In this document: positions 2,881 to 15,788 of the stretch, piece by piece
Layout: each line of letters opens with the position of its first letter
Position numbering within the stretch: the stretch's first letter is position 1
Source: an uncultured Myxococcales bacterium
GTDB lineage: Bacteria > Myxococcota_A > UBA9042 > PHBI01 > JACKFB01
DNA: 28,860 nucleotides
Assembly: GCA_964577445.1 (NCBI GenBank)
Contig: CAZNZH010000002.1
Coordinates: 1 to 28,860, forward strand
Direction: 5' to 3'
Notes under the pieces: generated by a model
The model's database searches: none
What the model was told of the DNA's origin: nothing
The model's input: the letters and a program-made list of their open reading frames with translations, nothing else
Made by a program: the position numbers and the translations under genes

Positions 2881-2933
2881 ACCGTAGCGCACAGCCTGCT
2901 CAAGCTCTGCTATCATCGAGGTGGTCATCATGA
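2877..2933 (+). other. 18-codon mini-ORF bridging sigma and anti-sigma
   Basis: ATG 2877 overlaps the sigma stop (ATGA). Its own TGA (2931-2933) overlaps the anti-sigma ATG at 2930 (ATGA). Peptide MNRSAQPAQALLSSRWSS. Confidence 0.3.
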
Positions 2934-3592
2934 ACTGCCAGGAACTACAGAAGGTCCTGCTCCCCTTCGCCGACGGCGAGCTGGGGGCCGAAGAGACCGC
3001 ACGGGTGCAGGCCGCGCTGGCGGATTGCCCTGACTGCGTCGCCGAGCTCGCCGAGCTCGCCGCGGTGCGATCGCTGGCTCGGGAGGCGTTTGAGGCCGAC
3101 GTGGCCGACGTGGAGCTGGACGGCGTGTTCGACGGCGTCATGGCGCGCCTCGACGCGGAGGGCGCGCTGCGCGGGGTCGGGGCGACCGCAGCGACGCAGA
3201 GCGCTGGGCAGACGGGCGCCTTCGAGCGCTTGTCTGGGTGGATGGGCGAGTTTTTCCGGTTCGAGCGACCCGTAGCGGCCTTCGTGATGGCCGCCGCCGT
3301 GGCCGCGCTCGTCGCGAGCGCCATGTTCTCCCAAGGCGACGGGCCCTCGGTGGTCCCGGGTGGCGCGCCACAGGTCGCGGGCGGGCAGCCGGCGACGACG
3401 ACGACGACGACCCACCCGCGCCGCGACATGGAGATCGAGGTGGTCGCTGGCCGAAACGCCGCGTCGGTGGAAGACTTCGAGGCCGCGGACGGCAAGGTGG
3501 TCATCGACCATCAGAACGACCCGGACACGCCGATGGTCGTGTGGCACATCGTGGACGAGGGTGCTACGACCACCCCTGAGAAGGGCCTGTAG
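2930..3592 (+). CDS. Transmembrane anti-sigma factor (zf-HC2/ZAS-like N-terminus), about 220 aa
   Basis: MNCQELQKVLLPFADGEL...ALADCPDC; one TM (VAAFVMAAAVAALVASAMF); GAGGTGG RBS; lies directly after the ECF sigma. Confidence 0.85.
   Translation: MNCQELQKVLLPFADGELGAEETARVQAALADCPDCVAELAELAAVRSLAREAFEADVADVELDGVFDGVMARLDAEGALRGVGATAATQSAGQTGAFERLSGWMGEFFRFERPVAAFVMAAAVAALVASAMFSQGDGPSVVPGGAPQVAGGQPATTTTTTHPRRDMEIEVVAGRNAASVEDFEAADGKVVIDHQNDPDTPMVVWHIVDEGATTTPEKGL
3394..3411 (+). repeat. (GAC)6 trinucleotide run encoding a poly-Thr linker
   Basis: gacgacgacgacgacgac, within PATTTTTTH of the anti-sigma. Confidence 0.8.
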
Positions 3593-4218: not shown

Positions 4219-5361
4219 ATGCCGACCGTCCTCCGCCTCGTTGCCGTAGCCGCTCTCTTCGCGGTGGCCGTGGCGCACCCAGCGCCCGTCCACGCGGCCG
4301 AGCCCACCGAAGAGGCCAAGCGCCAGGCCGCCGACTTCTACATGGAGGCCCAGCGCCTCTTCGATGCCGAGCTCTACTCAGCGGCCATCGAGAACTTCAA
4401 GAAGTCGCAGGAGCTCTACCCGGCCTCGGCGACCCTCTACAACATCGCGAAGTCCTACGAGCGCTTGGCCGACTCGCAGAACTGCGTGGAGTACTACCAG
4501 GCCTACCTCGACGCCTTCACGGCCGAGAACGGCACCCCGGCGCCGGACTCGGTCGACGTGCGCAACAGCATCACCAAGTGCCGCTTGGGTGCCAAGGTCG
4601 AGGTGCGCATCGACTCGAAGCCGCCGGGCGCGCAGATCCGCATCGACGACGCGTCGAAGCTGCTGGGCCAGACGCCGTACTCGACGCGGATGGACGCGGG
4701 GACCTACACGTTCTACCTGGATCTGACTGGGTTTTCGCCCATCAAGCGCGAGGTCGTCGTGCGCCCCGGCGAGCCCCTTCAGCTCGTGTTTGAGATGGAG
4801 AAGTTCCGGCGCGTGGGCACGGTCCACATCGGCTCGAACATCCGCGGCGCGACGATCTTCATCGACGGCCGCAACATCGGCCTGACGCCCTACGGCGAGG
4901 AGATCCAGCTCGAGGAGGGGCTCCACCAGATCACGATGAGCAAAGAGGACTACAACACCTACTCGACCGAGATCTCCGTGGTCGCGAACGAGGCCTACAA
5001 GGTGCGCGGCAGCCTGTTTTTGCGCGAGCGCCAGAAGACGGCCAAGGGCCCGCTGGGCTGGACCTCGCTGGCGCTGGGCGCGGCGATGACGGTGGGCGGC
5101 GTGCTGTCGGCCAAGCAGGCGGACACCAAGTTCGCCGGCACCAAGGAGTTCGACGACTGGGCCTTCCGCGAGAAGCTCGGCTATGGCCTCGGCGGCGGTC
5201 TCGGCGCGCTGGGGTTGGCGCTCATCATCTGGGAGTACGCCGGCGGCAAGAAAGTCAAACCGAAGGACAAGCTGTCGGGCGGCGGGCCGCAGCCGGTGTT
5301 TACCCCCTTGGTCGGCGCGAATCCGAACGGCGGATTTGCTGGCGCTCGCGTGGATTTTTAG
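4219..5361 (+). CDS. TPR + PEGA domain exported protein, 380 aa
   Basis: Signal peptide; TPR-like helices (AAIENFKKSQELYPASATLYNIAKSYERL); two PEGA repeats (IDSKPPGAQIRIDD, IGSNIRGATIFIDGRNIGLTP); Gly-rich hydrophobic helices; terminal strand ending in Phe. Confidence 0.85.
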   Translation: MPTVLRLVAVAALFAVAVAHPAPVHAAEPTEEAKRQAADFYMEAQRLFDAELYSAAIENFKKSQELYPASATLYNIAKSYERLADSQNCVEYYQAYLDAFTAENGTPAPDSVDVRNSITKCRLGAKVEVRIDSKPPGAQIRIDDASKLLGQTPYSTRMDAGTYTFYLDLTGFSPIKREVVVRPGEPLQLVFEMEKFRRVGTVHIGSNIRGATIFIDGRNIGLTPYGEEIQLEEGLHQITMSKEDYNTYSTEISVVANEAYKVRGSLFLRERQKTAKGPLGWTSLALGAAMTVGGVLSAKQADTKFAGTKEFDDWAFREKLGYGLGGGLGALGLALIIWEYAGGKKVKPKDKLSGGGPQPVFTPLVGANPNGGFAGARVDF

Positions 5362-5378
5362 CCGTGAAGGGTGATGCG

Positions 5379-6476
5379 ATGCGACGCCTGATTCTAAACG
5401 CGATGGTGGCCTGTGGCGCTTCGGCCGCGGCGTTGGGTGGCTGTGCTGAGGGCATGGTCCCGCCGCTGCCGACCGAGATGGTCGAGATCAAGAGCGGCCT
5501 GACCTACATGTTCGGCCAGTCGGGGCCCTGCGTCCTCGAAGGCAAGGTCGACCCCTGCGAGACCGCCGGGCGGGTGCCGACGATCTACCCGCAGGTGCAG
5601 GTGACGCTGGCGGCCTTCGCCATCGACAAGCACGAGGTCACCAACCTCCAGTACGAGTACTGCGTGGCGGCCGGGAAATGCAGCAGCCCGCCCTTCGACA
5701 ACGCGGTGGCGACCGAGCAGCAGGACTACTACGGCCGCGGGCGCTTCGAGCAGTTCCCGGTGGTCAACGTCACCTGGCAGCAGGCCAAGGATTACTGCGA
5801 GTTCGTGGGCAGGCGGCTGCCGACCGAGTTCGAGTGGGAGCGCGTCGCCAAGGGCAACCCCGACGAGGGCAAAAACCGCATCTACCCCGCCGAGGGCGTC
5901 AACGTGCTCTCGGACTGCCGCAGCAGCGACTTCACCTCCAGCGCGTGCCGAAACGACCAGCTCATGGACCGCACCGACCAGCCGGGAAAAGACATCGTCA
6001 TGGAGGGCGGCCAGGGCATCAACCACATGTTCGGCAACGCCTCGGAGTGGGTGGACACGCAGTACGCGCCGAAGGTGACGACGTGCAAGGAGAAGCTGCC
6101 GCCACCCTGCATCCAGCGAGCGGAGTGCGACACCAAGCCCGCCGATGAGCAGGCTCAGTGCAAGCAGGACAGTAAGTTCTGCGAGGCTTGCGTGCAGGAT
6201 CCCAGCGGCAACGGCACGCTGCCCTGCTTCTACATCTGCGAGGGCACGGCCCAGAGCACCCCCTTCTGCGTCGAGTACCCGCCGGGCGTCTCGGTGTCCC
6301 TGGAGTCCCTGACCGCGACGCTCGCCGACGGCCCGCTCGGACCGATGATCCGCGGCGGCAACGTGCAGATCAACGCCGAGAACGGCTGCCAGTTCCGCAG
6401 CGACTACCGCCTGAACTACGCGAACACCGACGACACCAAGTTCAACGTGGGCTTTCGCTGCGCCAAGACGCTCTAG
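5379..6476 (+). CDS. FGE-sulfatase (SUMF1-fold) domain lipoprotein with Cys-rich insert, about 365 aa
   Basis: Lipobox LGGC. Motifs FAIDKHEVTNLQY, FPVVNVTWQQAKDYCEFVGRRLPTEFEWERVAKG, MFGNASEWV, IRGG and C-terminal VGFRC. Confidence 0.85.
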   Translation: MRRLILNAMVACGASAAALGGCAEGMVPPLPTEMVEIKSGLTYMFGQSGPCVLEGKVDPCETAGRVPTIYPQVQVTLAAFAIDKHEVTNLQYEYCVAAGKCSSPPFDNAVATEQQDYYGRGRFEQFPVVNVTWQQAKDYCEFVGRRLPTEFEWERVAKGNPDEGKNRIYPAEGVNVLSDCRSSDFTSSACRNDQLMDRTDQPGKDIVMEGGQGINHMFGNASEWVDTQYAPKVTTCKEKLPPPCIQRAECDTKPADEQAQCKQDSKFCEACVQDPSGNGTLPCFYICEGTAQSTPFCVEYPPGVSVSLESLTATLADGPLGPMIRGGNVQINAENGCQFRSDYRLNYANTDDTKFNVGFRCAKTL

Positions 6477-6530: not shown

Positions 6531-8528
<1,998 letters not shown>

Positions 8529-8646
8529 GGGCTGGGTGAGCTCCGCGGGTCGAGCGGCTGGCGCGAGCGGGGGCGAGACGCCGCGCGCCGGTGTGGGACG
8601 GCCGAGCGGAGGCTTCGATCTCGCGAGGGGCCAACGCCGGGGATTG

Positions 8647-8675
8647 TTGATCCATCGGGGCCGTGTGCATAGCCT
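8647..8675 (+). promoter_or_regulatory. sigma70-like promoter giving a probably leaderless transcript
   Basis: TTGATC-N17-TAGCCT. The -10 box ends 8 nt before ATG 8684, and no RBS is visible. Confidence 0.45.
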
Positions 8676-8683
8676 GACGCACA

Positions 8684-9961
8684 ATGGGGTGCTTCACCAG
8701 GATCTGGGCCGGGCTGGCGCTGCTGGGCGTGGCCGTGGGCGGCTGCGGTGGCGGCGGCGACGCGGCGTGCACCGACGCGAGCTGCGGCCTCACCGAGGTG
8801 TGCCGCGCCGGCCAGTGCGAGCCGGTCCAATCGCCTCAGGCCAGCGGGGATCTGGGGCGCTTCACGCGCGTCGCGCTGCGAGCGGACGGGCGCCTCGTGA
8901 TCGCGACCTACGACACGAGCTACACCAACCTCGTGCTGCGCACCGAAGAGAGCGACGGCGCGTTCACCGATCGCATCGTCGCCGGCTGGCGAATCGAAGA
9001 CCACCACCCCGTGGACGCCGACGCGGGGCGGTGGCCCTCGGTCGCCGTGGCCGCGGACGGCGCCGTCCACTTGACCTGGTACGACGGGTACGCGCACGCG
9101 CTGATGTGGGCGCGCTACCCCGCGACGGGCGAGCCGCTGGTGGAGCTGGTCGACGGGGGCGGTGACTTCGACCGCGGCACGCACTCGAGCTTGGCGCTCG
9201 GCGAGGACGGCCGCGTCCACGTCGCCTACCGCGACCAAGGGCGCAAGCGCCTGCGGTACGCCGAGCGCGCGCCCGGCGGCGGCTGGGAGAGCCGCGACAT
9301 CGACGGCTGCCCGCGACCCGACGGGTGCGGCGACGTGGAGACGAACCGGGGCGAGTGGGCCGCGCTGGGCTTGGTGGCTGGCGAGCCGCGCGTCGCCTTC
9401 TACGATCGAGCGCGCGGGGACCTCGACCTCGCGGTGCGGGACACCGCCGGCGCGTGGCGGGTCAGCGTCCTCGACGGGTGGGACCCCATCACGGGCATGG
9501 ACACCGGCGACGTCGGGCGATTCGCGAGCCTGGCGCTGGACCCGAAGCGGCGCGTCGGCGTCGCCTACTACGACGCGACGCGCGGCCAGCTCCGCTATCT
9601 GGCGCCGACGGGGGCCAGCAGCGGGCCCCTGCGCGTGGACGACGGGGTCTACGCGGACGCGGCGACCGGCAGCATGCGGCACAACCCCGTCGGCCAGCAT
9701 GTGGCGCTGCGCTATGACCCGCAGGGCGTCGCGCACATGGTCTACCTCGACGCGGGGCGCCTGGTTATCCGCCACGCCACCGTGAGCGGCGTGGCTGTCA
9801 CCGGTGTCGCGGACCTCGCCGGGTTGGCGCCAGGGGGCCACCTGGACTTCCAGATCGCGCCCGACGGCCGGATTCGCGGGGCGTACGGCGCGTGGCGCGG
9901 CGACGGGAGCTTGAGGACCCGGCTGGCGGTCTTCGACGTGCCCGCGGCGGGGTCGCCGTGA
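8684..9961 (+). CDS. Lipoprotein with small Cys-rich domain and 7-bladed beta-propeller, 425 aa
   Basis: Lipobox VGGC; CTDASCGLTEVCRAGQC; seven repeats of the type G-x(3)-SLAL-x(3)-G-x(2)-HVAY-x-D (for example GTHSSLALGEDGRVHVAYRD and GRFASLALDPKRRVGVAYYD). Confidence 0.75.
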   Translation: MGCFTRIWAGLALLGVAVGGCGGGGDAACTDASCGLTEVCRAGQCEPVQSPQASGDLGRFTRVALRADGRLVIATYDTSYTNLVLRTEESDGAFTDRIVAGWRIEDHHPVDADAGRWPSVAVAADGAVHLTWYDGYAHALMWARYPATGEPLVELVDGGGDFDRGTHSSLALGEDGRVHVAYRDQGRKRLRYAERAPGGGWESRDIDGCPRPDGCGDVETNRGEWAALGLVAGEPRVAFYDRARGDLDLAVRDTAGAWRVSVLDGWDPITGMDTGDVGRFASLALDPKRRVGVAYYDATRGQLRYLAPTGASSGPLRVDDGVYADAATGSMRHNPVGQHVALRYDPQGVAHMVYLDAGRLVIRHATVSGVAVTGVADLAGLAPGGHLDFQIAPDGRIRGAYGAWRGDGSLRTRLAVFDVPAAGSP

Positions 9962-11502
9962 TGGGGCGCAGGCTTCGCAGGTGGCGGGCGCTGGCCTTGG
10001 GCACAGCGGCGGTGGCGGCTTGGGCCGGCGCCGGGGGGTGCGCGGCTGGGTTTTGGGCCCACGGGCTGAGCACCGAGGCGCCGACGAACACCCCGGCGAC
10101 CGCGAACGGGATGGTCCTGGTCATGGGTGAGGCCGGGTGGCGCGTCGCCGCGCAGACCATCGCGAAAGACCTCGGGCAGGCCTATCCCGACGGGCTGATC
10201 TTCGACGCTGGCGCACAAGGGAGCGCGGTCGCCGTCCCCGACGAGTCCACGCTGACGGTCGGGTTCGAGGCCGCCGCGCTGCACACCGGGCCGGTGGAGC
10301 TCCAGGTGGATCCCTTGGGCGTCGTCCTCGAGATCGCGACCGCTCTACAGCCGCTCGAGATGACGGTCGAAGCGGGCGGGCGGGCCCTGTGTGAGGTGAC
10401 CGTCGGGTTCGAGCACGGCCTGCTGCGCGGGCGGCTCGCGTTGACCCGGAGCAAGCTGGGGCGGATCCACGCGGGCGGGCTGAGCGACGTGACGCTCGAC
10501 GCGCCTGAGGCGACGATCGATCTCAGTGATTGCCCGGACCTGGCGGCGGCCTCCGGGGCGAGGTTCACGGATTCAGCGGACCCGGACCTGGCCCAGGCCC
10601 TGCTGGACGCGGTGGGGGCTGAGGCCTTCGCGGCGCTGGGCCCCACCCTGGCGGACACGGTGCCGAGCGCTCTCGGGCTCGACGTGTCGTCGGACGCGAC
10701 CGCTCAGTTCATCGATGGCGTGGGCGAGGGCTGGCTGCGCGCGCGCGTTCGAGCGTCGGAGGCCGAGCAGGGAAACTGGTGGCAGATCGCCGGGGGGCGC
10801 CTCAACGTGCCCTACGCGGTGGCCATCGAGGCGAGAGGGCACCCTTGCGCGGTCGGGGAGGTGCTGGCGCCGCCAGCGGCGCAGTCGATCCCCCAGGTCG
10901 CGGCGGACGCGGCGCTGCTGCTCGCCGACAATGTGCTCGCCTACGCCGTCTGGGGGCTGTGGCGCTCAGGCGGGCTCTGCGGCGAGCGCGCCTCCCGCGA
11001 TCTCCGGTGGCGCGCAGACGAGCTTCTGCCGGGGTGGCCGGCGCTCTCGGCGCTGCCGGCGGACGCGGCCATCACCCTGCGCGTCTGGCCCGACGCGCCG
11101 CCGCAGGTCGTCATCGACACGAGCGCGGCGGGCCCGCGCGCGCGGGTGGCCATCCCGCCGTGGACCCTCGAGCTCTACGCCGACATCGACGGGGCGAGCG
11201 TGCGCTTGGCGACGCTCCGCGCCGGACTCGAGGTCGTCGCCGGGCTCGAGGTCCGCCCCGACCGCTCGGTGTGGCTCGCGCCGGAGTCGGTGACGGTGAA
11301 CGCCACCGGAGCGCAGCCGGGGCTCTTCGCGGCACCACAGCCCGAGATCATCGAGCGGATCGCAGGCCCGCTGGCCAACGCCATCGTCGCCGCCCGCCCG
11401 GTCTGGTGGCTCCCCACCTTCCCGTTGGGCCCCCACGACGTGGTGTCGCACGAAGCGGGCTATCTGGTTTTCGCCTCGCGACCGGCCGGGGGAAGCGATT
11501 GA
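9961..11502 (+). CDS. BPI/LBP/CETP-like (TULIP fold) putative lipid-binding lipoprotein, about 513 aa
   Basis: TGATG overlap with the previous gene; lipobox AGGC. Segments resembling BPI/LBP: NGMVLVMGEAGWRVAAQTIAKDL, ALLLADNVLAYAVWGLWRSGGL, LRVWPDAPPQVVI, and terminal HEAGYLVFAS. Confidence 0.6.
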   Translation: MGRRLRRWRALALGTAAVAAWAGAGGCAAGFWAHGLSTEAPTNTPATANGMVLVMGEAGWRVAAQTIAKDLGQAYPDGLIFDAGAQGSAVAVPDESTLTVGFEAAALHTGPVELQVDPLGVVLEIATALQPLEMTVEAGGRALCEVTVGFEHGLLRGRLALTRSKLGRIHAGGLSDVTLDAPEATIDLSDCPDLAAASGARFTDSADPDLAQALLDAVGAEAFAALGPTLADTVPSALGLDVSSDATAQFIDGVGEGWLRARVRASEAEQGNWWQIAGGRLNVPYAVAIEARGHPCAVGEVLAPPAAQSIPQVAADAALLLADNVLAYAVWGLWRSGGLCGERASRDLRWRADELLPGWPALSALPADAAITLRVWPDAPPQVVIDTSAAGPRARVAIPPWTLELYADIDGASVRLATLRAGLEVVAGLEVRPDRSVWLAPESVTVNATGAQPGLFAAPQPEIIERIAGPLANAIVAARPVWWLPTFPLGPHDVVSHEAGYLVFASRPAGGSD

Positions 11503-11527
11503 CAGCGACGCGAGGCGCCCGTAAACC
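11499..11527 (+). promoter_or_regulatory. sigma70/SigA promoter overlapping the stop codon of the BPI-like gene
   Basis: TTGACA-N17-TAAACC. The TGA stop (11500-11502) lies inside the -35 box. Confidence 0.55.
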
Positions 11528-11627
11528 GAGGCTTGGCCCGTCGAGGGCTGGCGGGGACCCGTCCGGGATGAACCGCGTGGCGTCGCGGGTTGGGCAGCCG
11601 GCGCTCTGGTGGCCGTGGGAGAAGACG

Positions 11628-12347
11628 ATGCGCGCATGGTTCGCGACCTTCACAGGCGCTCTTTTGCTGACGATCCCCGCGATGATGCCGGGTGGTGAGC
11701 CCGCAGCCGCTGCGGAACCCACCGGCACGGTCATCTATGAGGGCAAGCTCCAGGACGCCAAGCGAAACCCCGTCGGGGGGGTGTTTCCGCTGACATTTTC
11801 CCTGCACCAGGGGCCGAAGGGCGGCAAGTCGCTGTGGACCGAGAGCCACTTCGTCGCCGTGGACAGCGGCCGCTACGTGACGCGGCTGGGCGAGAAGCGC
11901 CCCATCCCGCCGAACGTGGACATCGCGCAGATCTACCTCGCCGTCTCGATCACCGGCGGTGACGAGATCGTCCGCGAGCGGCTCGATCCCACCGCGCGGA
12001 CGGAGCCGGAGGCCGCGGGGCCGCCCGGGCGGGGCGACGCAGCCGCGCCGGGCGGGCGCAAGGTGGTGGACTACGCGGAGACCGCCGGGCTCGCCTACGA
12101 GGCCGAGCACGCCAAGGTCGCCGACCGGGTCGGGTCGATGAGCGCCGCCGACATCGAGGAGAAGCTCAAGGCGAGCAGCGGTCGGGTCACGCTGGGTTCG
12201 AAGACGCGCTTCACCGCGCGGGCCGGCGGCGAAGGCGGCGTGGCGTACGAGGTGAAATGCCCCAAGGGTTACGTGGTGACCGGCATGCGCGGCGGCTCGG
12301 GGCTGTACCTCGATTCGGCGCAGCTCATCTGTAGCCCGCTGGAGTAG
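11628..12347 (+). CDS. Exported miniature fibre/adhesin-like protein with jacalin-like C-terminal repeat, 239 aa
   Basis: GGAGA RBS; signal peptide; YEGKLQDAKRNPVGGVFPLTFSL...LWTE...VDSGRY...LG domain; YAETAGLAYEAEHAKVADRV fibre-like repeat; tip AGGEGG...CPKGYVVTGMRGGSGLYLDS. Confidence 0.6.
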   Translation: MRAWFATFTGALLLTIPAMMPGGEPAAAAEPTGTVIYEGKLQDAKRNPVGGVFPLTFSLHQGPKGGKSLWTESHFVAVDSGRYVTRLGEKRPIPPNVDIAQIYLAVSITGGDEIVRERLDPTARTEPEAAGPPGRGDAAAPGGRKVVDYAETAGLAYEAEHAKVADRVGSMSAADIEEKLKASSGRVTLGSKTRFTARAGGEGGVAYEVKCPKGYVVTGMRGGSGLYLDSAQLICSPLE

Positions 12348-12350
12348 GCG

Positions 12351-13553
12351 GTGCACCGGACGCACGGTCGCGCGCGCTCTGCGGTGTGCCTGCTGGGGCT
12401 GGGGCTCGCGCTGGTCGCCACCGCCCCGCCGGCGTCGGCGCAGTCGGACACGGACAAGGCCAAGGCGGGCGCGCTCGTCGAAAAGGGCCTCGAGAAGGCG
12501 CGCGACGGCAAGTTCGCCGAGGCGGTGCCGCTGTTTGACCGAGCGTTCAAGCTCTATCCGCATCCCGAGATCCTGCACAACCTGGCGCGCGCCCATGAGG
12601 AGCTGGGGCAGCTTCCGCTCGCCCTGGACGAGTTTCGCCGGGCGCTGGAGATGGACAAGGACTACACGTTCGCCGGCGACGCCCAAAAGCGCGTCGTCGA
12701 TATCCCGGCGCGGCTGCGAAAGACCCACGGCCTGGTGCGCGTGACCTCGACGCCGGCCCAGGTGGAGTTGACCTTGAGCGTCGACGGCCGGCCCTTTGAG
12801 GCGCACCTGGTGACGCCGGCTGAGCGCTGGGTGCCCGCGGGCCGGCTGAAGGTGAGCGGCACGCGGCCCGGATACGTCGATGGCGCCGAGGAGATCGACG
12901 TGGTCGCCGGGTCGGAGCCGAACGTGGAGCTGGTGCTGCCGCCGATCGCACGCAAGGGTTTCATCGCGGTCGTGACGACGGTGCAGGGCGGGACGATCCG
13001 CATCGACGGCGAGCTGGTGGGCGCCGCGCCCCTCGAGACGACGCCGCTGGCCGCCGGAGTTCACACGGTGCGCGTGGAGGCGAGGGGATATCAGGCCTTT
13101 GAGGAGCGCATCGTGGTGGAGCCGGACCGCGAGATCGTGGTGAAGGCGACCCTGCTACGGCTCGGTGGCGGCCCAGGCGACACGGAGCGCTTGGGGCCCA
13201 AGCCGACGCTCGGCGCGGCGCTCATCGGCGGTGGGCTTGGGGTGGCCGTCGTCGGCGCGGTGCTTCACGGCTTGGCGTTCAAAGACGCCAAGGACGCCAG
13301 CGAGGTTGACAACAACCCCCTGTCGACCGCGGACGACGCGCGCTTTGATTCGTTGAAGGGAAAAGCTGAGACGAAGCAGGCTGTGGCGTTCGCGTCCTAC
13401 GGCGTCGGCGCGGCGCTGGCCGGCGTGGGCATCTATTTCCTGGTAAGAAAGCCCCGCGCAGGCCAGAAGACCGAGGCGGCGGCGCCGCGGTTGACCCCGG
13501 TGGTCGCTGTCGAGCGCGGCGGGCTGGGTCTCGGCGCGCGACTCTCATTCTGA
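12351..13553 (+). CDS. TPR + PEGA domain exported protein, 400 aa (same architecture as 4219..5361)
   Basis: GTG start; signal peptide; TPR (AVPLFDRAFKLYPHPEILHNLARAHEELG); PEGA repeats (VQGGTIRIDGELVGAAP...AGVHTVRVEARGY); hydrophobic hairpin; C-terminal GARLSF. Confidence 0.85.
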   Translation: MHRTHGRARSAVCLLGLGLALVATAPPASAQSDTDKAKAGALVEKGLEKARDGKFAEAVPLFDRAFKLYPHPEILHNLARAHEELGQLPLALDEFRRALEMDKDYTFAGDAQKRVVDIPARLRKTHGLVRVTSTPAQVELTLSVDGRPFEAHLVTPAERWVPAGRLKVSGTRPGYVDGAEEIDVVAGSEPNVELVLPPIARKGFIAVVTTVQGGTIRIDGELVGAAPLETTPLAAGVHTVRVEARGYQAFEERIVVEPDREIVVKATLLRLGGGPGDTERLGPKPTLGAALIGGGLGVAVVGAVLHGLAFKDAKDASEVDNNPLSTADDARFDSLKGKAETKQAVAFASYGVGAALAGVGIYFLVRKPRAGQKTEAAAPRLTPVVAVERGGLGLGARLSF

Positions 13554-13564
13554 ACGGATCACCC

Positions 13565-14317
13565 GTGCAGCGTTTTCGTACTGCCATCATCGTCGGAGCC
13601 TCCTCGGGCATCGGCCGCGCCATCGCGCGTCAGCTAGCGGCTGGCGGCACCAGGGTTGCGCTCCTGGCCCGCCGGCGGGGCGAGCTGGCCGAGGCCCAAG
13701 CCGAGATCGCCACGGCGGGCGGGCACGCCATCGTGCGAGTCCACGACGTGTGCGACACCGACGCCATCCCGGCCCTCTTCGACGATCTCGTCGCCGAGCT
13801 CGGCGGGCTGGACCTGCTGGTCTACGCTGCGGGGGCTCTGCCGGCCGTGGCCGAGCACGAGTACGACTTCGAGCGCGACAGGCTGACCATCGACGTAAAC
13901 CTGCTGGGCGCCATGGCGTGGCTGAACCCCGCCGCAGCGCACATGGAAGGCGCCCGTGCGGGGACGTTGCTAGGCATATCATCCATTGCTGGAGAGCGCG
14001 GCCGGCGCGCCAATCCGGCATATTGCACTGCGAAGGCGGGGCTGACGACCTATCTGGAGTCGCTGCGCAACCGCTGCTCGCGTTACGGCGTGGACGTCGT
14101 CACGGTCAAGCCGGGCTTCGTCGACACCGCCATGAGCGCCAATCTGGCAGGCCATCCGCCGGGGCTCGCCCCCATCCCGGTGGAGGTGGCCGCCCGCCAG
14201 TGCCTCGCGCTGGCCTCGGGCGGCTCGCGCGCGGGCTATGTGCCCAAACGCTGGGCCCTGGTCGCCTTCATCGTGCGAAACATCCCGTCGTGGCTGTTCC
14301 GCCGCACCAACGTGTGA
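13565..14317 (+). CDS. dprE2: SDR oxidoreductase, DprE2-like (polyprenylphosphoryl-2-keto-pentose reductase), 250 aa
   Basis: GASSGIG Rossmann motif; SSIAGERGRRANPAYCTAKAGL (YxxxK), closely like the equivalent segment of mycobacterial DprE2; VKPGFVDT; adjacent to a DprE1-like gene. Confidence 0.75.
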   Translation: MQRFRTAIIVGASSGIGRAIARQLAAGGTRVALLARRRGELAEAQAEIATAGGHAIVRVHDVCDTDAIPALFDDLVAELGGLDLLVYAAGALPAVAEHEYDFERDRLTIDVNLLGAMAWLNPAAAHMEGARAGTLLGISSIAGERGRRANPAYCTAKAGLTTYLESLRNRCSRYGVDVVTVKPGFVDTAMSANLAGHPPGLAPIPVEVAARQCLALASGGSRAGYVPKRWALVAFIVRNIPSWLFRRTNV

Positions 14318-14321
14318 CCCG

Positions 14322-15788
14322 GTGAGGCGACGCCCCGGCGCTGTGTTGCCGCTCCCCAACGGCCCGCGCGCGGCGCTGGACGGCTTCGGGCGCGCCGTGG
14401 GCTCGGCGGCGGTCCTTCACGCGCCCCAGAGCATCGACGCCCTCAAGGCGCTGGTGTCGCAGGCCGCCGCCGAGCGCATCCCGCTGGCCTTTCGCGGCGC
14501 CGGCCGCAGCTACGGCGACGCGGCGCTCAATGGCGGCCACCTCGTCATCGACACCCAGAAGCTCGACCGCGTGCTCGCCTGGGACCCCGAGTCCGGCGTC
14601 ATCGACGTCGAGCCCGGCGTGACCATCGAGGGCCTGTGGCGCGCGACCATGGCCGACGGCTACTGGCCCTGGGTGGTCCCCGGGACGATGTTCCCGACCA
14701 TCGCCGGCTGCGTCGCCATGAACATCCACGGCAAAAACCACTTCCGCGCGGGCCCTTTTGGCGAACACGTCCTCGATTTCGACCTGCTGACGCCCGCCGG
14801 CGAGGTGCTGCGCTGCTCGCGCGAGGACAACGCCGACGTCTTCCGGGCCGCCATCGGAGGCTTCGGGATGCTCGGCGCCTTCACGCGAATTCGGCTGAAG
14901 CTCCACCGCGTCCACTCGGGAAACCTGCGAGTCGAGGGCCTCGCCGTCCCCAACCTCGACGCGCTCTTCGACGCCTTCGACGCGCGGCTGCCCGACGCCG
15001 ACTACCTCGTCGGCTGGACGGACTGCTTCGCCCGCGGCAAGAGCCTCGGCCGCTCGGTCATCCACGCGGCCCACCACCTCGCCCCGGGCGAAGATCCCGA
15101 CAGCGCGCGCACCCTGGACCCCCACGCCCAGGATCTCCCCGACCGCTTCTTCGGCGTCATCCCGCGCGGGCTGATGTGGCGGCTCTTGCGCCCATGGGTC
15201 AACGACGCCGGCATCCGCATCGTCAACGCCACGAAGTTCGCCTCGTCGCGCCTCCTCGATCGGCCCGGGCGCACGTTTTTACAGTCCCACGTGGCCTTCG
15301 CCTTCCTGCTCGACTACGTGCCGCGCTGGCGCGACGCCTACGGCTTGGGCGGCTTCATCCAGGTGCAGCCCTTCATCCCCGCCGACGGCGCGCGCCAGGT
15401 GATGCGCCGCATCCTCGAGACCTGCCACGAGCACGGCGTCACCCCGTACCTGGGCGTCTTCAAGCGCCACCGCGCCGACGAGTTCCTGCTGTCCCACGCG
15501 CTGGACGGCTACTCCATGGCGATGGACTTCCGCGTGACGGCGAAAAACCGCGAGCGGGTCTGGAGGCTCGGCCAGGCCATCGGCGACCTCGTCGTGGCCA
15601 GCGGCGGCCGCTTCTACTTCGCCAAAGACGCGGTCGCGCGCCCCGAGCAGGTCCTCGCCAGCTTCGGCCCCGAGCGGGTCGCCGCCTTCGCCGCGATCAA
15701 GCGCCACCTCGACCCCAGCGGCCTGCTCTCGAGCGAGCTGAGCCGCCGCGTGCTGCCCGCCCTCCCCGTGCTCGACGACCTGACCTAG
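14322..15788 (+). CDS. dprE1: FAD-linked oxidoreductase, DprE1-like (polyprenylphosphoryl-ribose 2'-oxidase), about 488 aa; start uncertain
   Basis: RGAGRSYGDAALN, VVPGT, IHGKNHF, GGFGMLG, GFIQVQ, GYSMAMDF, GGRFYFAKD and DPSGLLSSELSRR all match DprE1 family motifs. Confidence 0.8.
   Translation: MRRRPGAVLPLPNGPRAALDGFGRAVGSAAVLHAPQSIDALKALVSQAAAERIPLAFRGAGRSYGDAALNGGHLVIDTQKLDRVLAWDPESGVIDVEPGVTIEGLWRATMADGYWPWVVPGTMFPTIAGCVAMNIHGKNHFRAGPFGEHVLDFDLLTPAGEVLRCSREDNADVFRAAIGGFGMLGAFTRIRLKLHRVHSGNLRVEGLAVPNLDALFDAFDARLPDADYLVGWTDCFARGKSLGRSVIHAAHHLAPGEDPDSARTLDPHAQDLPDRFFGVIPRGLMWRLLRPWVNDAGIRIVNATKFASSRLLDRPGRTFLQSHVAFAFLLDYVPRWRDAYGLGGFIQVQPFIPADGARQVMRRILETCHEHGVTPYLGVFKRHRADEFLLSHALDGYSMAMDFRVTAKNRERVWRLGQAIGDLVVASGGRFYFAKDAVARPEQVLASFGPERVAAFAAIKRHLDPSGLLSSELSRRVLPALPVLDDLT

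Follow-up and report, generated by a model that had tools for sequence, protein, structure and literature searches.

Does a member of the Myxococcota encode a lipid-anchored counterpart of the animal lipid-binding proteins BPI and LBP, and what might such a protein do at the cell envelope? The question is raised by a gene in a 28,860-nucleotide stretch of DNA from an uncultured Myxococcales bacterium (positions 1 to 28,860 of contig CAZNZH010000002.1, assembly GCA_964577445.1), which we refer to in its entirety as the window. An initial annotation, made from the sequence alone, had proposed a two-domain BPI/LBP-like lipoprotein at 9961-11502. The fold concerned, a tandem of two TULIP barrels, underlies human lipopolysaccharide (LPS) sensing by LBP, bacterial killing by BPI, and plasma lipid transfer by CETP and PLTP. 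Its bacterial counterparts are just starting to be characterized, DUF4403 through predictions and TipA through one preprint of 2025. From a computational analysis of the gene, its relatives, and its neighbors, we consider it reasonably probable that the product is a lipid-anchored, extracytoplasmic double TULIP, a bacterial structural counterpart of BPI, LBP, and CETP that would handle lipids at the outer membrane.

A conserved gene outside the annotated families

The open reading frame (ORF) at 9961-11502 on the plus strand, stop codon included, is a real, conserved gene encoding 513 residues. It lies within a coding frame (9718-11502, plus strand) singled out by a frame-specific GC content at third codon positions (GC3) of 0.86, a value typical for coding frames of the window, whose overall GC content is ≈70%. 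We favor the start at 9961 because its ATG shares one base with the stop codon of the preceding gene (tgATG) and because the N termini of five orthologs agree with it. An index of 5.8 billion proteins yielded five relatives only, at 60-84% identity and labelled hypothetical, whose named sources are metagenome-assembled genomes (MAGs) of Myxococcota or "Deltaproteobacteria." When 1.84 billion cluster representatives were searched exhaustively with an HMMER profile, 65 clusters emerged, 46 of them at E ≤ 1e-10 and most 470-515 residues long; the few family members with a source name all come from Myxococcota MAGs.

Curated resources did not recognize the protein. No Pfam family matched the window protein at E ≤ 10, an NCBIfam scan gave one meaningless match only, 39 relatives scanned against the two collections yielded no usable family either, and sequence searches of the PDB, whether with the single protein or with the alignment profiles A1 and A2, found nothing relevant.

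Predicted tandem TULIP fold

We obtained an AlphaFold2 (AF2) model of the protein from a 6-sequence alignment, with a mean predicted local distance difference test score (pLDDT) of 66 and a predicted template modeling score (pTM) of 0.58. The two barrels lie mostly at pLDDT 70-90, and values are low for the signal peptide, linker, and parts of the central region. Along the model, a strand, a helix, four to five very long strands, and a long helix occur twice, with three strands in between, which is the element order described for BPI-like double TULIPs (PMC6791001; 10.1101/2025.09.09.675085).

The modeled N-terminal barrel, delimited by AF2 secondary structure, Foldseek, and invariant cysteines, covers residues 50-240 (nucleotides (nt) 10108-10680; all features of this gene are on the plus strand). 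It comprises a strand at 51-55, helix A at 57-74, long antiparallel strands across 97-190, and helix B at 208-238, and it holds the invariant C144 and C191. In the central region (residues 241-316, nt 10681-10908), assigned from AF2 secondary structure and conservation, strands at 243-250, 257-265, and 280-291 correspond to the central β-sheet of BPI-like proteins; this region contains the invariant H294 and C296, and model confidence is lowest here. The C-terminal barrel (residues 317-506, nt 10909-11478) is indicated by AF2, by Foldseek, and by a similarity to the BPI/LBP C-domain that is sub-threshold but exceeds shuffles. Its elements are a strand at 317-322, helix A' at 323-338, strands across 370-453, helix B' at 461-477, and terminal strands at 494-505, with G337, C340, W376, and P377 invariant.

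When the model was compared with the PDB using Foldseek, the top match was LBP (4m4d, E = 2.5e-15), along with BPI (1ewf and 1bp1, E = 5e-15 and 1e-14, template modeling (TM) scores 0.53-0.60 over ≈505 columns) and CETP (2obd, E = 7e-13); the matches to these three proteins span ≈505-525 columns. Clostridium botulinum OrfX1-3/P47 form a second tier (E = 1e-7 to 1e-6). They too have the TULIP fold, but their superposition is much poorer (TM 0.2-0.3) and their domains are arranged differently. Single-domain TULIPs come next, namely SPLUNC1/BPIFA1, Takeout, JHBP, latherin, and β-carotene-binding protein. The best 45 matches are all TULIP proteins, and the first non-TULIP protein appears at rank 46 with a probability of 0.02. 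Because a poor model would not be expected to yield such a one-fold, full-length pattern, the tandem TULIP fold, with its two barrels and central sheet, is well supported, while still being a prediction.

The initial annotation had started from four segments said to follow the order and spacing of BPI, and all four are located where it placed them. Motif 1, GMVLVMGEAGWRVAAQ (residues 50-65, nt 10108-10155), has its BPI counterpart at mature residues 4-19 and lies on strand 1 and helix A of the model. Motif 2, LLLADNVLAYAVWGLWRSGGL (residues 319-339, nt 10915-10977; BPI 255-275), lies on strand 1' and helix A'. Motif 3, VWPDAPPQVVI (residues 375-385, nt 11083-11115; BPI 317-328), falls on an early strand of the C-terminal barrel, and motif 4, HEAGYLVFAS (residues 497-506, nt 11449-11478; BPI 443-452), on the two C-terminal strands, all as expected from BPI. 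The mature human BPI sequence used for these positions was checked against PDB 1bp1_A and is identical bar the crystallized variant residue. Successive motifs are spaced by 269, 56, and 122 residues here versus 251, 62, and 126 in BPI, so that the order is identical and the differences stay within ≈20 residues. Taken singly, motifs 1 and 4 have no significance. The two-domain BPI/LBP-like architecture is likewise upheld by the AF2 element order and by the LBP, BPI, and CETP matches at the top of the Foldseek results; the AlphaFold and Foldseek comparison with BPI that had been suggested as a check, once run, returned the fold order of BPI and full-length matches to all three proteins; a predicted structure other than a tandem TULIP, which would have counted as refutation, was not obtained. 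As far as the model goes, the structural call appears right, which is notable given its basis of four short motifs.

The sequence family itself offers indirect support for an apolar interior. Hydrophobicity averaged over the family alternates along the strands with a value of 2.22, against 1.05 ± 0.20 for the null (null maximum 1.80), and helices A' and B' are amphipathic. Such a pattern is not proof, but it would be expected if one face of each sheet lined an apolar pocket.

Remote sequence similarity to BPI and LBP

Among curated models, PF02886 (LBP_BPI_CETP_C) gave a sub-threshold match in one of 39 family members (E = 0.021), and PF01273 matched in none. This E-value is scaled to 24,736 searched models; with the model fixed in advance, the per-test probability is small even when 39 sequences are allowed for.

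We built hidden Markov models (HMMs) from 102 vertebrate BPIs and mouse LBP. With the C-domain HMM, four of 70 family sequences scored at least 6.5 bits (11.0, 8.9, 7.0, and 6.5), compared with a maximum of 6.2 bits in 3,500 composition-preserving shuffles and 1.1 bits in reversed sequences. The alignments fall on "SDYFFNTAG..G.L" in helix A' and on "P..k..l.vs.PPhl," that is, on motifs 2 and 3. In the opposite direction, the family HMM scored vertebrate BPIs at up to 13.9 bits, whereas none of 2,060 shuffles exceeded 4.2 bits. Its matching pieces are co-linear and comprise the N-terminal strand with helix A (motif 1), the strands of the N-terminal barrel with helix B, and the segment that runs from motif 3 to motif 4 in the C-domain. 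The BPI N-domain HMM detected nothing in the family. One alternative hhalign alignment to BPI, of non-significant probability, runs co-linearly for 414 columns and brings all four motifs into correspondence. Together, these comparisons suggest a weak similarity to BPI and LBP that is remote and sub-threshold, reproducible and co-linear, and that falls short of family membership by curated criteria.

Predicted lipid anchor, tether, cysteines, and charge

The protein begins with a predicted signal peptide (residues 1-26; nt 9961-10041 including Cys27), recognized by a basic n-region, a hydrophobic h-region, and the lipobox A-G-G ahead of Cys27, the predicted lipidation site. This cysteine is invariant among close relatives (alignments A1 and A3) and at least 90% conserved in 39 sequences (alignment A2). 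Ortholog lipoboxes read VGA↓C, LGA↓C, LTA↓C, LAG↓C, and LGG↓C; a pattern search found a lipobox in 38 of 48 full-length members, and most others show one by eye. The membrane tether claimed in the initial annotation is thereby supported, with lipobox and Cys27 conserved in nearly all core members.

In a survey of the N termini, the residue at +2 is Lys in no member and Asp in one. In Myxococcus xanthus, Lys at +2 marks inner-membrane lipoproteins and Ala at +7 directs sorting to the extracellular matrix (PMC3222651). The window protein has Ala at +7 (CAAGFWA), and its close orthologs have Ser, Thr, or Trp there. Because neither Asp nor Lys, the residues of inner-membrane retention, stands at +2, we infer that the lipidated protein would be destined for the outer membrane or the cell surface.

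A tether of ≈22 residues (28-49, nt 10042-10107) links the anchor to the first barrel; it has no secondary structure in the model, with pLDDT below 50, and carries an aromatic-W-x-x-G motif whose W32 is at least 90% conserved. The motif reads FWAHG here and PWGxG in most relatives, and it lies 3-6 residues after the cysteine in nearly all core members. We also note that (P/F)-W-G-x-G (residues 28-35, nt 10042-10065; relatives P0007-P0058) sits within an otherwise flexible tether. It could be a membrane-interface or partner-docking element.

Four cysteines, C144, C191, C296, and C340, are invariant in the 39 sequences. Their conservation is consistent with two disulfides formed in an oxidizing compartment, with putative pairing. 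Equating C144-C191 with the BPI disulfide C135-C175 was considered and dropped, since they come into register in none of our alignments.

The family is strongly acidic. The window protein carries a net charge of -27, with a family range of -18 to -49, and the mature protein contains only two lysines (0.4%). For the N-domain alone the net charge is -17 (family mean -15), whereas that of BPI stands at +14. Because of this acidity, electrostatic capture of lipid A in the manner of BPI and LBP is unlikely.

A predicted β-propeller lipoprotein encoded next to the TULIP protein

The upstream gene (8684-9961, plus strand), translationally coupled to the TULIP gene as judged by gene overlap and synteny, encodes a 425-residue lipoprotein with a Cys-rich N-terminal stretch and, by AF2 and Foldseek, a confidently predicted seven-bladed β-propeller. 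Four conserved cysteines (C29, C34, C40, and C45) come directly after the lipobox, and C209 and C215 form an invariant pair. The AF2 model, from a 36-sequence alignment, reaches a pLDDT of 90.6 and a pTM of 0.87. Its best PDB folds are the Photorhabdus fucose lectins PLL/PHL (E ≈ 1e-13, TM up to 0.75), then sialidases and other glycoside-active propellers. No Pfam family covers the protein; distant sequence relatives carry BNR_4, a weak similarity.

The propeller gene adjoins the TULIP gene in all loci examined, down to a TULIP identity of 23-34%. Homologs of both proteins lie on the same contigs, with neighboring locus tags where tags exist, and the two genes overlap by four bases in loci L001, L002, and L006. 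Gene order is kept more widely in six independent loci: a Ser/Thr kinase on the opposite strand, the propeller, the TULIP protein, a secreted protein of 239-264 residues, and a protein with TPR and PEGA domains. A genome scan with a 12-sequence alignment found three loci. We regard the propeller lipoprotein as a candidate partner or adaptor of the TULIP protein. A scan of 8300-13800 for promoter and terminator consensus sequences found none; from their overlap, the two genes are inferred to be co-transcribed.

Comparison with known double TULIPs

The eukaryotic LBP/BPI/CETP/PLTP proteins (PF01273 plus PF02886; 1BP1/1EWF, 4M4D, 2OBD) resemble the window protein in length, with ≈460 folded residues, and in being extracytoplasmic. 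They also share with the predicted model its two barrels, each made of helix A, a long twisted antiparallel sheet, and helix B, and its central sheet. They differ in being soluble and secreted, whereas the protein described here would be lipid-anchored, and in the cationic N-domain of BPI, which is acidic here. The four invariant cysteines, which fall out of line with the one BPI disulfide, C135-C175, in our alignments, and the operon with a β-propeller lipoprotein are further differences.

Identical in architecture is DUF4403 (PF14356) of diderm bacteria, predicted to comprise full-length BPI-like pseudodimers, mostly lipoproteins with a 20-25-residue linker that rarely carry Asp at +2, hence a predicted outer-membrane location (Levine 2019, PMC6791001). 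A lipoprotein signal, a linker of ≈20-25 residues, a double TULIP of ≈450 residues, and rarity of Asp at +2 are common to both. In sequence, PF14356 matched none of 39 family members even at E ≤ 10. We rebuilt nine DUF4403 sequences from Levine's supplementary alignments, two of them confirmed against PF14356 at E = 1e-56 and 1e-52 (control scores E = 1e-51 to 1e-56), and HMMs of the two families gave no signal above shuffles in either direction; hhalign assigned a probability of 1.8% in an underpowered comparison. Because PF14356 does not match and the HMMs stay at shuffle level, we treat the family as distinct from DUF4403 in sequence, with a shared architecture. It differs further in that its sequence signal points to BPI/LBP and that its named members are Myxococcota only. 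As this signal points to the eukaryotic BPI/LBP proteins and not to DUF4403, it is possible, though we think it a long shot, that animal BPI/LBP/CETP have some of their closest bacterial relatives in this family.

The second precedent is the TipA/TipB pair (Bd2538/Bd2539) of Bdellovibrio bacteriovorus. TipA is a solved, secreted BPI-like double TULIP that contains lipids (Caulton et al., 10.1101/2025.09.09.675085); it has ≈570 residues, is Sec-secreted, and dimerizes via a hairpin inserted in its N-terminal barrel. TipB, a small C2-like β-sandwich whose gene comes next and overlaps by 4 nt, opens TipA at the N-terminal barrel, and many bacterial double TULIPs with fused domains occur in AFDB50 (10.1101/2025.09.09.675085). 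The likenesses to our system are a BPI-like double TULIP, BPI/CETP/LBP as structural neighbors, a translationally coupled partner, and a deltaproteobacteria-like lineage. Compared by description, the differences are that we find a 513-residue lipoprotein and that its partner is an upstream seven-bladed propeller rather than a downstream sandwich. No TipA-type hairpin motif was found, and TipA is absent from the PDB fold matches. Another solved bacterial TULIP protein besides OrfX1-3/P47, Escherichia coli YceB, is an outer-membrane lipoprotein (PMC6791001); it has a single TULIP domain and is not among the fold matches listed.

Beyond the core family are two distant groups of relatives, whose gene surroundings are unrelated and whose BPI C-domain signal is clearer than that of most core members. 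Group 1 (P0060, P0061, P0066, and P0068; loci L009 and L010) consists of Sec-secreted proteins of ≈550 residues with net charges of -64 to -76. The tail of P0061 has a Cys/Gly/Ser-rich stretch, a hydrophobic helix, and RRRR, and resembles MYXO-CTERM. Group 2 (P0064 and P0065; locus L008) comprises Cys-rich proteins of 1,330-1,390 residues whose TULIP-like region lies at about residues 350-580. The ≈550-residue secreted proteins were considered as TipA and rejected, the TipA hairpin motif not being found.

The novelty implied by the initial annotation was overstated in the light of these precedents. Bacterial BPI-like double-TULIP lipoproteins had been predicted in 2019 (DUF4403, PMC6791001), and 2025 brought the structure of a bacterial double TULIP that has an operonic adaptor (TipA, 10.1101/2025.09.09.675085). 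What is new is a distinct, unannotated family, Myxococcota where named, with its acidity, its propeller partner and four-gene module, and a sequence signal toward animal BPI/LBP over DUF4403.

Proposed role and alternatives

How might such a protein work? Exported by Sec and lipidated, and not retained in the inner membrane, it would reach the outer membrane or the cell surface and hang there on its ≈22-residue tether. The amphipathic sheets and helices of both barrels would form the walls of apolar pockets, into which the hydrophobic portion of a lipid, or some other hydrophobic molecule, would be taken up. The propeller lipoprotein coupled to it, with its lectin- or sialidase-like fold, may dock the TULIP protein, recognize a head group, or gate the barrels. 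We modeled this role on how TipB opens TipA, an analogous logic in which the fold differs and the two genes stand in the reverse order. At the outer membrane, the pair would together extract a lipid or glycolipid, hold it, or pass it on, and the cargo would probably not be captured through BPI-type cationic binding of lipid A phosphates.

A more specific version, which we think a long shot, makes the double TULIP and the lectin-like propeller a two-component outer-membrane device, in which the TULIP protein houses the lipid tail, while the propeller reads the sugar of the head group and docks or gates its partner. Its cargo would be a glycolipid, such as a polyprenyl-phospho-sugar made by the neighboring DprE1/DprE2-like pair, a glycosphingolipid, or an LPS precursor, and it might be wired to the adjacent Ser/Thr kinase with its PEGA-like ectodomain. 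The polyprenyl-phospho-sugar is a speculative cargo for the closer lineages because of the DprE1/DprE2-like neighbors described below.

Several observations weigh against a lipid-handling double TULIP paired with a propeller. The fold prediction is of moderate confidence, made from six sequences, and the model with mean pLDDT 66 is the only one of five above 52, the other four lying at 41-51. PF01273, PF02886, and PF14356 stay below threshold in the protein and 39 relatives, and an unbiased PDB-wide profile search was empty. Alignments by hhalign of the family to BPI (as a single sequence and as a 103-sequence alignment), to DUF4403, and between its own halves gave probabilities of at most 4%. 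The positive controls (BPI-N versus BPI-C, DUF4403-N versus DUF4403-C, and DUF4403 versus BPI) failed too, so these negatives, obtained without secondary-structure scoring and from shallow alignments, carry no weight. The likeness of the propeller to lectins is generic, at ≈13% identity. Because the synteny comes mostly from related Myxococcota, the conserved order could partly reflect shared ancestry rather than function, and the gene was absent from all RNA sequencing runs searched.

Many Myxococcota are predators, and a protein of this kind might instead be a predation factor that attacks membranes or scavenges lipids, in the manner of TipA or of BPI as a permeabilizer; carried off on outer-membrane vesicles or displayed at the surface, it would destabilize the membranes of prey and strip them of lipids. 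The Ala at +7 in the window protein, the matrix-sorting determinant of M. xanthus (PMC3222651), would fit such a role, but it is not kept in close orthologs. A TipA-type hairpin motif was not found, and the neighbors are housekeeping-like envelope and signaling genes, not hydrolases or toxins. We regard a role in predation as unlikely.

The initial annotation had favored a lipid/LPS carrier, possibly one that harvests prey lipids or moves lipids across the envelope; all of these activities are putative. Its lipid half is retained in the role proposed above; the LPS half fares worse. BPI and LBP capture lipid A by a cationic N-terminal tip, and in this family, at net charges of -18 to -49, the N-domain stands at -17 versus +14 in BPI, with two lysines in the mature protein, and the BPI N-domain HMM gives no signal. 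A true functional analog of LBP or BPI that binds LPS or lipid A and extracts or shuttles the LPS of the cell itself or of its prey thus seems quite improbable, even though LBP and BPI themselves are the best fold matches, the diderm host has LPS, and the partner propeller resembles sugar-binding lectins that could in principle read LPS glycans.

We likewise give little credence to a role other than transport, in which the protein would be a ligand-sensing or scaffolding subunit of an envelope complex with the PEGA/TPR proteins and the Ser/Thr kinase, its pockets binding a hydrophobic signal. The kinase with its PEGA-like ectodomain and the TPR-PEGA protein stay next to the pair even where loci are distant. 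Among the fold matches are Takeout and JHBP, which bind terpenoid hormones, and the β-carotene-binding protein, all single TULIPs for hormones or carotenoids. Against this, the kinase lies on the opposite strand, and every characterized double TULIP, to our knowledge, handles bulk lipids.

That the BPI-like fold is an artifact of a shallow, low-confidence prediction, and the protein some other β-rich fold, is very improbable: a mean pLDDT of 66, four of five models at 41-51, and database-wide sequence searches that give no support would allow it, but full-length, co-linear matches to one rare fold at E ≈ 1e-15 with the top 45 all TULIP, barrels at pLDDT 70-90, and independent sequence tests that arrive at the same family in the same register all speak against it.

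Should the improbable two-component device prove real, the pair would be the second independently evolved adaptor-gated double TULIP after TipA-TipB. Because the propeller partner is conserved and translationally coupled, adaptor-assisted double TULIPs may recur as a design. The weak, reproducible link to vertebrate BPI/LBP bears on possible bacterial roots of the animal family, and the two lipoproteins offer a concrete, expressible protein pair for asking how diderms move unusual lipids at the outer membrane. In any case, the analysis adds an unannotated family that no curated profile recognizes. Should the protein be merely another lipid-binding lipoprotein, the gain would lie mainly in annotation, with ≈65 clusters of "hypothetical protein" labelled as BPI-like double-TULIP lipoproteins.

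The conserved module and its surroundings

Downstream of the TULIP gene, after a gap of 125 nt, lies the gene for a secreted two-domain protein of 239 residues (11628-12347, plus strand), found in the same position in loci L001-L007. Its N-terminal domain of ≈90 residues carries the motif Y.G...D....P..GvFPLtF......GG...WTESHFVAVD.G.Y..LG and is followed by a low-complexity Pro/Ala linker and a C-terminal domain with the invariant pair C212/C236; the protein matched no family and no PDB entry. The last conserved member of the module is the TPR-PEGA envelope protein (12351-13553, plus strand), identified by the Pfam TPR and PEGA models, whose position is also kept in L001-L007.

On the other side, the Ser/Thr kinase (6531-8528, minus strand; Pkinase E = 1e-49) has a transmembrane segment and a PEGA-like ectodomain. 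Its likely start is M53 of the longest ORF, which extends to 8684; orthologs are called at 656-661 residues. The kinase adjoins the module in L001, L002, L005, and L007, and in L006 a kinase flagged for PEGA lies ≈4 kb upstream with three genes between. With the start at 8528, a divergent intergenic region of ≈155 bp (8529-8683) separates the kinase and propeller genes, in which the consensus scan found no σ70-like promoter.

Other neighbors are conserved in the closer loci only, namely an extracytoplasmic function (ECF) sigma/anti-sigma pair, a PEGA protein, an FGE-sulfatase-domain protein, and a pair made of a short-chain dehydrogenase/reductase (SDR) and a flavin adenine dinucleotide (FAD)-linked oxidase. 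The ECF sigma factor and its zf-HC2 anti-sigma factor are encoded at 2077-2880 and 2921-3592. The surroundings are rich in PEGA, with a PEGA lipoprotein-like protein at 4219-5361 in addition to the kinase and the TPR-PEGA protein. The PEGA proteins and the ECF/anti-sigma pair suggest an envelope-signaling region. The FGE-sulfatase-domain protein (5364-6476, plus strand) has its best NCBIfam similarity to GldK/PorK, a ring lipoprotein of the type IX secretion system, at E = 1.2e-17 and far below the cut-off, and this similarity probably reflects merely a shared FGE-like domain.

Following the TPR-PEGA gene, the SDR (13565-14317, plus strand) resembles DprE2 (NF053786, E = 1.7e-33) and the FAD-linked oxidase (14238-15788, plus strand) resembles DprE1 (NF053785, E = 2.5e-83), both below curated cut-offs. 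DprE2 and DprE1 are the mycobacterial decaprenyl-phospho-ribose 2'-epimerase pair. The enzymes encoded here would act on a lipid-linked sugar; their genes adjoin the module in the window, L001, L002, and L005, and not in L006 or L007. A reading of the two as ether-lipid (AGPS-like) enzymes was rejected, NCBIfam favoring DprE2/DprE1.

The TULIP gene is the fastest-evolving of the block: between L005 and the window, identity is 34% for the TULIP protein, 45% for the propeller, 53% for the 239-residue protein, and 61-65% for the SDR and FAD oxidase. Among named genomes, a Myxococcota MAG (isolate BC1.85) comes closest, with ≈70-94% protein identity over the block. DNA nearly identical to that of the window is present in metagenomes of several studies, sampled from biofilter, activated sludge, soil, sludge, and landfill.

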